Shown: positions 6,159 to 38,664 of the stretch, one piece after another
Numbering within the stretch: position 1 is the first letter of the stretch
How the letters are laid out: each line of letters opens with the position of its first letter
Assembly (NCBI GenBank): GCA_963827165.1
Contig: CAWGZR010000011.1
Coordinates: 127,332 to 191,331, forward strand
DNA from: Candidatus Bathyarchaeota archaeon
Lineage (GTDB): Archaea > Thermoproteota > Bathyarchaeia > Bathyarchaeales > Bathycorpusculaceae
DNA length: 64,000 nt
Reading direction: 5' to 3'
Program-made: the position numbers and the translations under genes
Notes under the pieces: generated by a model
Database searches by the model: none
Told to the model about the DNA's origin: nothing
What the model saw: the letters and a program-made list of their open reading frames with translations, nothing else

Positions 6159-6230
6159 TTTCACTGTGGCGATCTGCGCTTGTTTTGCGTTGCTTTTTTG
6201 GTTGAGGGTTTGAATTCGGCTCAAATGAAG
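6159..6230 (+). repeat. Partial copy of dispersed T-rich leader repeat
   Basis: TGTTTTGCGTTGCTTTTTTGGTTGAGGGTTTGAAT resembles the copies at 36013 and 26980-27015 (minus); no clear 10-bp array. Confidence 0.45.
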
Positions 6231-6339
6231 AGTGGAAATCGAAAGTTATGAAAAGCGGATCCATATTGGCTAGTTGTAAATGTAGCCCGCAAATGGTTAA
6301 GTTGCAGTTTTCCCATATTTGAAAGTCTGTGGCCAATTT

Positions 6340-6675
6340 ATGAGCAAAAAAGAATCTTCTAAACTTGCAGGCAAGGCATCAAGCCTTCCGGGCCTGATCG
6401 ATTATCAGGAGGGCTCAGTGGTTAGCCGTACTTTAATCGACAAGAAAACGGGAACAGTTACCCTTTTCGCATTTGACCAGAATCAAGGCTTAAGCGAACA
6501 CACCGCCCCCTACGATGCATTGGTTTACATAATCGAAGGAGAAGTTGGCATCACCATATTAGGTAAGCTGCTGACGCTAAAGCAGGGCGAAGTAACCATC
6601 TTGCCCGCCAATGAGCCTCATGCCTTATCGGCGAAAACAAAGTTCAAAATGCTCTTAACAATGATAAAATCCTAA
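6340..6675 (+). CDS. Cupin domain protein
   Basis: GSVVSRTL...TLFAFDQNQGLSEHTAP...PANEPHAL. Confidence 0.9.
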   Translation: MSKKESSKLAGKASSLPGLIDYQEGSVVSRTLIDKKTGTVTLFAFDQNQGLSEHTAPYDALVYIIEGEVGITILGKLLTLKQGEVTILPANEPHALSAKTKFKMLLTMIKS

Positions 6676-7289
6676 CCAAATTTGGTGCCCCACCTGTCCC
6701 TGAAACAGTACTCGCCAACCTGTTTTCTCTCTGGCGTCGGTGGCTCTTCATCTGGGTAACCCAACGCGATGAGCGCCTCAGGTTCGACTTCGCTTGGAAT
6801 TTCAAGTGTTTCCCGAACCGTCTCTTTGCAGAAACTGGGTGCACAAAACCAGCACGCCCCCAACCCAACAGAATGCGCCGCCAACAGCATGTTCTGCAAA
6901 GATGCGGCAAGGCTCTGCATAGCTAAATCCCGCTCCAGCTTCTGCCGCTCAACTTCGGTAAACCTCGCCATCCCATCCATGCTTAGACACGCAAGTATCA
7001 ATGCAGGCGAGTCTGCGAATCTTTCAACCCGGAACTTAACCGTTTCAGGCTCAACGGAGACGCCGTCTCTTGCCCTGTCGGCAGCCCACGCCTTCGCCAT
7101 AGCCTCCGCCAGCCGCCTCTTAACCTTGGGATCCGCCAAAACGATGAACCGCCACGGTTGAGCATTATGCGCTGAAGGCGCCCAACCAGCAGCCTCCAAA
7201 ACCTCATTGATTAAGTCCCTTGATACAGGTCGGGCTTGATATTTCCTTACGCTCCGCCTCTCCCTAAGCACACTCAACAAGTTTGACAT
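6672..7289 (-). CDS. Nitroreductase family protein (FbiB C-terminal-like)
   Basis: RRSVRKY, APSAHNAQPWRF, GLGACW, LIALGYP. Confidence 0.9.
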   Translation of the reverse strand: MSNLLSVLRERRSVRKYQARPVSRDLINEVLEAAGWAPSAHNAQPWRFIVLADPKVKRRLAEAMAKAWAADRARDGVSVEPETVKFRVERFADSPALILACLSMDGMARFTEVERQKLERDLAMQSLAASLQNMLLAAHSVGLGACWFCAPSFCKETVRETLEIPSEVEPEALIALGYPDEEPPTPERKQVGEYCFRDRWGTKFG

Positions 7290-7339
7290 GAAAGATTGTA
7301 TGTAGGTTTTTCTTTTTATCTCTTAAGCAAAAAAGCAAT

Positions 7340-35990: not shown

Positions 35991-36108
35991 TTTTTCGCAG
36001 AATTTTTCTCTTTGTTTTGGGTTGCTTTTTTGGTTTGGGACTTGGATTGTTTGTAGGTTGAGTCTTAAAATCTCTATAAATCTCTTAAAATCTCCTAGAG
36101 TTCTGTCA
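35991..36108 (+). repeat. Dispersed leader + 10-bp array element (unit ~AAAATCTC), upstream of katG
   Basis: Direct repeat with 38521-38664; shared AGGTTGAGTCTTAAAATCTC. Confidence 0.8.
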
Positions 36109-36297
36109 CCAAAGCGTATGGTCCATTCGTTATCGTTAGATCTGGCTTTTATAGACGGTGAATTGTTTTTGGTTCAATTTTGGATCTGCTTTGTTAATAA
36201 TTTTCGATTTCTCCGTTCAATCTCTTATCTTGCCCAAATCCCAAACTTTAAATCGGTCCCACTTCAAACAAAATACAGAGAAAGGAGCTGTTTTATT

Positions 36298-38475
36298 TTG
36301 AGTGACAAAACAAGACCTACAACCAGCCGAATTGGCGCCTCAAACCAAGATTGGTGGCCAAACCAGTTGAACCTAAATATGCTGCGTCAGCATTCGACCT
36401 TGTCCAATCCGATGGGCAAGGATTTCAACTATGCTGAGGAATTCAAGAAGCTCGACCTGCAAGCTGTAAAGAAGGACCTTTATGCGTTGATGACCGACTC
36501 GAAAGATTGGTGGCCCGCCGATTTCGGTCACTACGGAGGACTCTTTATCCGCATGGCATGGCACAGCGCAGGGACCTACCGCAAAGGTGACGGGCGAGGA
36601 GGTGTCTCAGGAGGAGCGCAGCGTTTTGCACCTCTGAACAGTTGGCCAGACAACGTTAACCTAGACAAAGCACGCCGTTTGCTTTGGCCAATTAAGCAGA
36701 AATACGGCCGAAAAATCTCTTGGGCTGATCTGATGATCCTTGCCGGCAACTGCGCTATGGAGTCGATGGGTTTTAAGACCTTCGGATTCGGCGGTGGCCG
36801 CAAGGACATCTGGGAGCCACCAGAAGATATCTACTGGGGTTCCGAAACAATCTGGCTAGGTGACAAACGCTATTCAGGTGCGAGGGAGCTGGAAAATCCG
36901 CTGGCTGCCGTGCAAATGGGGCTAATCTACGTTAATCCGGAAGGTCCGAACGGAAACCCGGATCCCGTTGCTGCTGCTAAGGATATCCGCGAGGTCTTTG
37001 GACGCATGTCGATGAACGACGAGGAGACGGTGGCTCTTATCGCGGGCGGCCACGCCTTCGGTAAAACCCACGGAGCTGGCCCTGCGTCGTTAGTGGGTCC
37101 TGAGCCTGAAGCCGCTCGCATCGAAGAACAAGGCCTTGGCTGGAAGAGCAAATTTGGGACGGGCAAAGGTGATGACGCAATTACCAGCGGCTTAGAAGTT
37201 ATCTGGAGTCAAACGCCGACTAAGTGGGGCAACAACTTCTTAGAAAATCTGTTTAGCTTCGAATGGGAACTGACTAAGAGTCCGGCTGGTGCGAACCAGT
37301 GGAAGCCTAAGGGTGACGAAGGCGCCGGCACAGTGCCTGACCCGCATGACCCGTCAAAGCGGCGCTCGCCATCCATGCTGACAACAGACCTTGCCCTGCG
37401 GTTCGACCCAGTTTACGAGAAGATTGCAAGGCGCTTTTACGAGAATCCGGATCAGCTAGCAGATGCCTTCGCCCGAGCATGGTTCAAGCTTACCCACCGC
37501 GACATGGGCCCCCGCTCTCGCTATCTAGGTCCAGAAGTCCCTGCGGAGGAATTGATCTGGCAAGACCCGGTGCCCGCAGTCGATCATAAGCTGATAGATG
37601 AACAAGATATCGCTGACCTCAAGGGCAAAGTCCTTGCCTCTGGCCTGTCGATTTCAGATTTGGTTTCGACCGCCTGGGCTTCGGCGTCAACGTTTCGTGG
37701 CTCTGATAAGCGCGGCGGTGCGAATGGGGCGCGTATCCGTCTTGCTCCGCAAAAGGATTGGAAAGTCAACCAGCCGGCTAAGCTGAATTCTGTGCTGCAG
37801 GTCCTTGAGGGAATCGAAGAGGAATTCAACAGTACACAGAAGGACGGAAAGAAGGTTTCGCTCGCTGATTTGATTGTTTTGGGTGGATGCGCAGGGGTAG
37901 AGCGAGCTACGAAAAATGCTGGTTATGACATGCCTGTTCCGTTCACGCCCGGACGCACAGATGCCTCGCAGGAGCAAACCGATGTGGAATCATTCGCAGC
38001 ACTCGAACCGGTCGCAGACGGATTCCGTAACTATCTCAAAACCAAATACGCCGTATCAGAAGAGGAACTGCTGGTTGATCGCGCACAACTCTTGACGCTT
38101 ACCGCTCCTGAAATGACCGTCTTAGTTGGCGGCTTGCGCGTCTTAAATGCCAACTTTGGACAGTCCCAGCACGGTGTCTTCACCAAGCGGATAGGCACGC
38201 TCAGCAATGAGTTCTTTGTGAATCTGCTCGACATGAGCACGACATGGAAGGCAGCCTCAAGTGACGAAGACGTGTTCGAGGGTCGCGATCGAAAAACGGG
38301 CGAGCTCAAGTGGACCGGTTCAAGGGTTGACCTTATTTTCGGTTCGAACTCCCAACTACGGGCGTTGGCGGAAGTCTACGGTTGTGAGGACTCCACGGAG
38401 AAGTTCCTGCACGACTTCGTAGCGGCGTGGAACAAGGTAATGAACCTTGACCGCTTCGACCTCGCTTGGTCGTAG
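36298..38475 (+). CDS. katG: Catalase-peroxidase
   Basis: [42 protein letters not shown] start at 36298 after AAGGAG. Confidence 0.97.
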
Positions 38476-38520
38476 TAGGAGCTAGACTGACCACATAGAA
38501 CAGGTTTAATTCCGATGTGA

Positions 38521-38664
38521 TTTTTCACTCGGGAATTTTTTCTTTGTGTTTTGAGTTCTTTTTTTGGTTTGGGGCTTGATTTGGCTGCAGGTTGAGTCTT
38601 AAAATCTCCATAAATCTCCCACAATCTCTGAAAATCTCCTCGAATCTACGAGTTTCGCTTGTCA
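38521..38664 (+). repeat. Dispersed leader + 10-bp array element (5 x ~AATCTC), downstream of katG
   Basis: aaaatctcca/taaatctccc/acaatctctg/aaaatctcct/cgaatctacg at 38601-38650. Confidence 0.8.

Follow-up and report, generated by a model that had tools for sequence, protein, structure and literature searches.

The 64,000-nucleotide stretch analysed here (the window), from contig CAWGZR010000011.1 of a Candidatus Bathyarchaeota archaeon, raises the question of what five intergenic sequences scattered through it are, and what they do beside genes such as msrB, hsp20 and katG. All five (c1 to c5) share a T/G-rich leader and four continue into an array of short units repeated every 10 bp. An earlier note on this DNA had offered three answers: helically phased protein-binding or bending sites, a 3′ untranslated region (3′ UTR) or non-coding RNA (ncRNA) family, and a non-autonomous mobile element whose tail is generated by local iteration. 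Bathyarchaeia are abundant and mostly uncultured, and to our knowledge almost nothing is known of their gene regulation; here is a frequent element with a clear anatomy, tied to an unnamed protein family. We read it, with a probability of roughly one half, as a set of operator cassettes in the style of those of MraZ, which duplicate and decay, the window copies being gene-less derivatives and not the 3′ UTRs of stress genes.

First of all, the leader defines the family. The five copies stand where the earlier note had placed them, as reading of all five stretches confirmed, and a repeat search and Tandem Repeats Finder (TRF) independently recover the same copies and their period-10 arrays. The common leader of about 70 nt is equally well founded: a core pattern written from the window copies, TGTTTTRNRTTSNTTTTTTN{4,8}GGGN{1,4}TKRAT, matches the window at exactly five sites, 6181-6215(+), 27014-26980(-), 33115-33149(+), 36013-36047(+) and 38547-38580(+), against 0.00 expected from 100 dinucleotide shuffles. 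Evidence independent of that pattern comes from a leader profile drawn mostly from the copies of other genomes, which gives the window copies 28.7-40.9 bits (E 5e-12 to 3.5e-8); below them the window's best match reaches 3.1 bits (E 3.6), with no intermediate scores. The worry that the likeness might dissolve among T-rich terminators is thereby answered (29-41 bits against 3 bits), since a gap of 26 bits sets a discrete family apart from any continuum of such terminators; the window holds 148 runs of six or more T but only five leaders.

When genome contigs were scanned with a relaxed pattern, at least 111 stretches were returned (loci labelled L001 onward), with the leader in at least 57 loci from at least 26 metagenome-assembled genomes (MAGs) of Bathyarchaeia or Bathyarchaeota. 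Further copies outside the window, on which the earlier proposal depended, therefore exist. The other 54 stretches among the matches listed are singletons from many other taxa, and none of these 54 non-Bathyarchaeia loci holds a convincing leader (best E 0.013). Among the stretches listed, all 68 profile matches with E < 1e-3, by a profile built from the same copies as were searched, come from the window or from loci of Bathyarchaeia; four copies were missed by the pattern and recovered by the profile only. Removal of overlaps leaves 66 non-redundant copies among the matches listed, which form the family sample used below. Their leader is about 70 bp long and strand-asymmetric (T 51%, G 30%), and its 36-bp core shows about 85% identity from copy to copy (0.85, the left flank reaching 0.28), a conservation that is partly built in by the selection of loci with a leader pattern. 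For this reason the orthologous spacer shared by c1 and locus L079 is the fairer test, and there the core is a conserved island amid diverged flanks. The five sequences are members of a discrete intergenic element family restricted, among the matches listed, to Bathyarchaeia, and the statement that it belongs to no known family stands for Rfam and the literature searched. The family is dense, with five copies in the 64-kb window and five further copies in about 156 kb of locus DNA; some MAGs, among the copies listed, carry leader-only copies exclusively.

Second, the arrays have a fixed period and register. For 43 of the 66 copies the best downstream period is 10 bp, compared with 50 of 808 control windows, and the period-10 score exceeds the control 99th percentile in 39 of the 66. 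Arrays begin 0-10 nt after the leader end GCAGGTTG, in one register throughout the family, and consist of 3-12 ten-bp units, each made of a 5-6-bp box and a 4-5-bp A/T-rich spacer. The units had been called copy-specific; they do differ between copies, but they are not arbitrary, given the single register and the A(A/C)G with which most boxes begin. The association with the leader is close: of the 24 period-10 arrays in 220,089 bases scanned, 22 stand no more than 40 nt from a leader, and another is the continuation of one of these. Box types recur within one genome in three cases (c4 and c5; L051 and one L067 copy; L106 and the first L096 copy). Mismatches to each array's own consensus, counted over 30 arrays and 161 units, number 10, 8, 9, 20, 27, 32, 42, 27, 37 and 7 at unit positions 1-10, and the box (positions 10, 1, 2 and 3) is more uniform than the spacer (positions 6-9) in 25 of the 30 arrays, with three ties and two losses (Wilcoxon p = 3.9e-6). 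As in MraZ-type operators, a short box is repeated directly every 10 bp. Among the earlier proposals, helically phased protein-binding sites fit best as judged from sequence, given the family-wide period of 10, the variable spacers and the arrays that are linked to a gene.

Third, that gene gives the element its complete form. Several arrays lead directly into an open reading frame (ORF) starting MPLT, and a DNA profile of the gene finds 12 loci at E < 1e-3, each directly 3′ of an array. In the eight loci measured, the distance from array end to start codon is 8-22 nt in six and 43-46 nt in two. Four linked ORFs are complete (89-94 aa) and two more stay open to the end of the locus; six are broken by stops, frameshifts or truncation, with two more wrecks recognised by eye in L067 and one in L106, although some of these breaks could be assembly errors. 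Three loci retain just the first 46-63 nt. At least half of the gene-linked copies thus carry a broken gene, and most other copies have none. An array at the promoter region of its own gene, as for MraZ, is found in these 12 loci and at none of the five window copies. In its complete form, then, the element makes up the 5′ region of a small gene for an AbrB-like protein with a tandem repeat.

The protein family counts 133 database matches, has no Pfam domain and belongs to Bathyarchaeia wherever the organism is named. Its two halves align with each other (HHalign 86%, E 4.7e-6), which indicates an internal tandem duplication, and its profile matches, weakly, the nearest relative of solved structure, PDB 2GLW (PhS018, 92 aa), at E 0.0076, residues 8-75 of 92 against 6-74. 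Weak matches to Pfam MazE/AbrB (PF04014) occur in 5 of 41 members (best E 0.0015) and to Pfam MraZ (PF02381) in 9 of 41 (best E 0.0022), and the proteins of four loci show no PF02381 match at E <= 1. The AbrB model TIGR01439 is hit by three of three proteins below its cut-off (E 0.0019-0.061), an Atlas lead joins the linked protein to an AbrB cluster at 0.87, and four family members carry a JGI label of AbrB/PrlF type. Taken together, these similarities weakly suggest a single chain of two AbrB-type half-domains, as in PhS018 and MraZ. One MAG encodes two intact paralogues, about 46% identical, behind arrays with different boxes (L037 and L057).

Finally, the element is dispersed and turns over. 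In one MAG a leader-and-array unit of about 110 bp stands at two unlinked sites with unrelated flanks (L106 and L096). The site upstream of the 389-aa gene at 26706-25537 carries in L076 an element that is inverted relative to the window, with AAGTCA boxes and a broken gene, and upstream of two RsmB-like genes that are 90% identical, the L044 and L052 copies differ and lie in opposite orientation. Dispersal, turnover and decay are all seen among the copies.

How, then, might such an element work? The MraZ chain holds two AbrB-type repeats, and MraZ operators are single-copy and not known to be dispersed. At its own promoter, that of dcw/mraZ in bacteria, MraZ is described as binding four GTG(G/T) boxes with 6-bp spacers, cooperatively and with one subunit per box (PMC12957436). 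The archaeal element resembles this in its array of 10-bp-spaced boxes at the regulator's own promoter and, by the HHalign result, in a chain of two repeats. It differs in that the protein has 92 aa, with sub-threshold Pfam MraZ matches in 9 of 41 members, that arrays run to 3-12 boxes with box sequences that vary between paralogous cassettes, that the array is always preceded by a conserved T/G-rich leader, and that leader-and-array units are dispersed without the gene. By analogy, one protomer would contact each box through the major groove; a spacing of 10 bp would place the protomers on one face of the helix and so favour cooperative binding, and the bound protomers would regulate the promoter lying at the array's distal end. 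Paralogous cassettes would carry their own, different boxes. The cassette would be copied to new intergenic sites and would decay there, and the window would hold four leader-and-array derivatives and one leader-only derivative, all gene-less. Regulators encoded elsewhere in the genome may still bind such copies as additional sites or decoys, for instance the two same-box arrays that bracket katG. For the leader our best guess is a T-tract barrier to read-through combined with an upstream promoter element of the cassette. A promoter inside the leader was considered and rejected, since no TATA-like box is found there like the TTTAAA/TTTATA-type boxes upstream of window genes; the arrays of c3, c4 and c5 do hold TATA-like spacers, which is suggestive only.

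Several observations weigh against these operator cassettes. No gene remnant follows 26 of the 38 arrays, and the window itself has neither a member of the linked protein family (best protein-profile E 0.18, to an unrelated ORF) nor a gene remnant after its arrays (nothing at E <= 10 with the DNA profile), so that the window copies are tied to the gene by leader and array homology only. All AbrB and MraZ family matches fall below curated cut-offs, a status that is assumed for PF02381, as the summary table gives no cut-offs. The proteins of L037 and L080 share nearly the same predicted contact motifs (VQIPKLIRWRFK, GRITIPKL) and have different boxes, so box specificity is not explained, and the pairs with the same box and the same protein are relatives and thus give no independent covariation. 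Two arrays are perfect tandem runs, whose appearance points to recent slippage rather than selection. The leader, whose strong conservation the cassettes do not explain and is partly built in by the choice of loci with a leader pattern, has no TATA-like box.

[quoted passage not shown] The recurrence at two unlinked loci and the two orthologous sites occupied by different members in opposite orientation speak for it, as do the frequent decay of the linked gene, an orientation that is independent of both neighbours, and the perfect units, at least 12 in L075, where the contig ends inside the array (L075:1-122), and three in L051. On the other hand, eight copies (four with the gene and four from the window) share no terminal inverted repeats and have only short copy-specific pairs. 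Neither the L106/L096 pair nor the pairs at orthologous sites have related flanks, and a target duplication could not be defined. Nor did the co-occurring recombinase or reverse transcriptase that the note had envisaged turn up as a recurrent neighbour: flanking genes are ordinary chromosomal genes, the 146 flanking ORFs include two transposases (IS110-type in L056, DDE_Tnp_1 in L062), neither of which recurs, and no integrase, reverse transcriptase or Rep. Neither element nor linked protein has a match in plasmid and phage collections, and the concentration of array variation in the spacers is not what neutral slippage predicts. The mobile element with an iterated tail proposed in the note is thus borne out in part, in its unlinked recurrence, orthologous-site turnover and perfect tandem runs, and not in terminal repeats or a recurrent recombinase, reverse transcriptase or transposase. 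A MITE with an internal minisatellite has been described in Porphyromonas gingivalis (PMC4596501). Our element is likewise small, non-coding, multi-copy and intergenic, with a variable tandem-repeat part and unlinked sites with unrelated flanks; it differs in having no terminal inverted repeats, identifiable target duplication or related transposase among the flanking ORFs, and in carrying its repeat at one end, in a fixed register with the leader. This alternative overlaps the operator cassettes, and both can hold.

A terminator, 3′ UTR or ncRNA, in which the T-tracts of the leader would stop transcription of the upstream gene and the A-rich array that of the other strand, is quite unlikely. 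Oligo-T tracts do terminate archaeal transcription, every leader (66 of 66) contains one to four runs of five or more T, a figure partly forced by the search pattern, and a run of five or more A occurs in 15 of 38 arrays. Within the window, as the earlier note had observed, four of the five copies do lie co-oriented 14-131 nt 3′ of a gene (msrB, hsp20, a CxxC-x17-CxxC gene and katG). Copy c4, on the other hand, lies upstream of katG with no co-oriented gene before it. Across the family, in an orientation table of ORFs of at least 80 aa, the upstream gene is co-oriented for no more than 14 of the 27 copies with arrays and 9 of the 21 with a leader only, and the downstream gene for 14 of 25 and 10 of 21. 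T-runs 3′ of a co-oriented gene are therefore not a family-wide arrangement, and with orientation unbiased the position 3′ of stress genes is a pattern of the window and not a trait of the family. The same table led us to reject the idea that array copies precede co-oriented genes while leader-only copies lie between convergent ones. The abundance of plain T-runs beside the 26-bit gap, and a conserved 36-bp core and box arrays that a terminator does not need, count against it as well, and a generic terminator motif was also discarded, a relaxed bipartite T-tract pattern finding four of the five leaders (not c5) and one other site. A structured RNA was rejected on folding results: RNAalifold gives a consensus structure of 0 pairs in the 66 copies, and fold z-scores range from -2.0 to +0.85 for four window copies on both strands. 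The local hairpin that c4 and c5 show is rich in G-U pairs and is lost when all 66 copies are aligned. Rfam returned one tRNA only at gathering thresholds, and nothing at E <= 1 over 26500-39000. The 3′-UTR or ncRNA family suggested in the earlier note is accordingly not supported.

We consider it similarly improbable that the arrays are structural DNA, with A-tracts phased at 10 bp that curve the helix or position chromatin and with box sequences that are irrelevant. The A-rich spacers recur every 10 bp (A is 42% of array sequence), at unit positions 6, 8, 9, 10 and 1 the share of A in the consensus is 0.6-0.7, and the boxes change from copy to copy but the period does not. What is conserved within arrays, on the other hand, is the box, with the spacer variable; some arrays have no A-tract (TGTGTCGGGA in L075, CGTGTTTCTG in L055); and the leader has no T periodicity at 10-11 bp (autocorrelation <=0.08 at periods 10 and 11), a flat profile on which phased T-tracts in the leader were also rejected. 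Chance likeness among T-rich low-complexity intergenic sequences, to which a leader of 51% T and the 54 relaxed-pattern matches in other phyla might have pointed, is refuted by the 0.00 matches in shuffles, by profile E-values down to 5e-12 and the fall to 3 bits, by the failure of the other-phyla matches against the profile and by the core conserved at an orthologous site with diverged flanks.

Two other comparisons place the operator cassettes among known systems. ParR at parC, TubR at tubC and the iterons share short direct repeats phased at about one helical turn just upstream of the gene for the binding protein, and here too a helically phased array of short repeats stands just upstream of a gene for a small protein. 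The differences are that no Rep, ParA/ParM or TubZ-type gene lies beside any copy (146 flanking ORFs), that no Rep-type initiator, as an iteron origin would have, is found among these or among 16 window neighbours, and that the context is chromosomal housekeeping with many dispersed copies per genome. PhS018 of Pyrococcus horikoshii (2GLW) has the same length as the linked protein, and the profile match given above supports the likeness, which is weak and at the level of sequence only. The source that describes PhS018 as an archaeal single-chain AbrB-fold relative calls it, in the part that concerns us, an uncharacterized protein and mentions no array there (PMC4333400). Our literature searches (Bathyarchaeia intergenic tandem repeats; Bathyarchaeota AbrB; archaeal AbrB operators) found no account of such arrays.

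If operator cassettes are indeed what we see, they would be an archaeal counterpart of the way in which MraZ reads DNA, with one protomer per 10-bp box, which unlike MraZ has expanded into paralogues with different boxes, and would offer natural matched protein-box pairs for studying how a swapped hairpin chooses its sequence. A bolder extension, which we think unlikely, is a self-propagating regulatory cassette: the AbrB-like gene would travel with an insulating leader and a one-box-per-turn array, paralogues and boxes would co-diversify into private recognition pairs, and gene-less copies, such as the pair around katG, would persist as additional operators or as decoys that bring the genes nearby, stress genes among them, under these regulators. 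Independently of mechanism, the element marks rapid intergenic turnover and synteny breaks and causes contig ends, and it thus matters for assembly and annotation; period-10 arrays can break assemblies and expand by slippage, as in L075. The apparent link to stress genes in the window should not be taken as a shared 3′ UTR.

Coordinates of the window copies are collected in the table below.

Leaders, arrays and associated boxes of the five window copies
Feature	Position	Strand	Evidence
c1 leader only, no array	6172..6225 (core 6181-6215)	+	pattern match; nhmmer 35.9 bits, E 2e-10
c2 leader	26967..27035	-	pattern match; nhmmer 34.6 bits
c2 array, 3 ten-bp units, box CGTCA(C/T)	26937..26966	-	read by eye, TRF
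c3 leader	33092..33162	+	pattern match; nhmmer 28.7 bits
c3 array, 7 ten-bp units, box AAGCTA	33163..33232	+	TRF period 10/20/30 at 33164-33234
c4 leader	35991..36060	+	pattern match; nhmmer 40.9 bits
c4 array, 3-4 units, box TCTC(T/C), A-rich spacers	36061..36100	+	read by eye, TRF
c5 leader	38521..38594	+	pattern match; nhmmer 38.9 bits
c5 array, 5-6 units, box type as c4, TCTC(C/T)	38595..38654	+	read by eye, TRF
Two inverted c5 boxes, 10 bp apart	38678..38693		inverted-repeat pair with 38623-38638, 81% complementary

That four copies carry 10-bp-spaced units after the leader was seen by eye and is supported by TRF, and c1, which had been listed as partial, is indeed a leader only, its period-10 score of 0.33 being at control level. 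It lies 131 nt past the msrB stop (SelR/MsrB, 5649-6041) and about 90 nt ahead of a cupin gene. The c2 leader begins 14 nt past the stop codon of hsp20 (HSP20, 27603-27049(-)), and the period-10 score of this copy, 0.57, exceeds the control 99th percentile of 0.55. In c3, whose leader stands 87 nt past the gene for a 47-aa CxxC-x17-CxxC protein (zf_Tbcl_2, 32862-33005), the box is intact in six of seven units, the first reading GAGCTA, and all of the 4-bp spacers are different. Directly before c3, a T-rich stretch at 33042-33074 is like the left part of the leader and is 76% complementary to c2 over 33 nt. Copy c4 lies between katG and a divergent 545-aa gene (34190-35827, -), with 197 nt from the end of its array to the inferred katG start at 36298, and the c5 leader is 45 nt past the katG stop (katG ends at 38475). 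Whether the inverted c5 box pair, 39 nt past the array, is part of the element is uncertain; it overlaps the start of a 74-aa ORF (38680-38904). Origin of c4 and c5 by a recent local duplication, such as a Campbell-type insertion of katG, was considered and is not favoured, because their leaders are closer to those of L057 (0.85) and L109 (0.89) than to each other; the two share the box type only, and not closest leaders.

The katG gene (36298-38475) is itself unusual, lying in the sole 2-kb stretch of the window above 50% GC (0.515). Its nucleotide identity with the katG of L075 is 87%, against 78-79% for other genes in common with related MAGs, and the L075 gene has no element and a divergent Fur-like neighbour that is split into two ORFs (L075:1892-2179). 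The high GC, the 87% identity and the Fur-like neighbour in L075 suggest that katG was recently transferred or relocated. Its frame stays open for 486 nt (35812-36297) upstream of the likely TTG start, through c4, so that ORF lists give an 887-aa ‘katG’ that swallows the element.

Beyond the window, leader-only copies are in several loci (L070, L079, L069, L080, L100, L043, L053) preceded by one or two tandem modules, each a T-rich stretch that is similar to the leader core and ends in GTCACAAATAGTAG, with a short palindrome or a C-rich/G-rich hairpin behind it. Weaker versions of the module follow the msrB stop in the window (about 6051-6160). In the window as a whole the upstream motif of the leader-only subfamily has a single three-mismatch match, at chance level. 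In a third subfamily (L003, L007, L030/L031, L097, L100), AAGTTGCGACTTT-like boxes stand on both sides of the leader and there is no 10-bp array; L030/L031 hold two near-identical copies, inverted and 1.3 kb apart. The first L096 copy (130-230) has two successive arrays, AATCG.. and then GTAGCAGAA.., before the next leader.

Other genes of the window are recorded here for completeness. Two genes for PF23477 CxxC-x17-CxxC treble-clef proteins lie back to back, one at 31918-32571(-), whose product of 217 aa has the finger at its C terminus, and the other at 32862-33005(+), the stand-alone finger of 47 aa behind which c3 lies. The window is archaeal and encodes RadA, and at 28277-31836 an RNase_H_2-superfamily gene runs into the start of a gene for a DEAD/Helicase_C/MZB (MrfA/Hrq1-like) helicase, the two being likely a DNA-repair pair.

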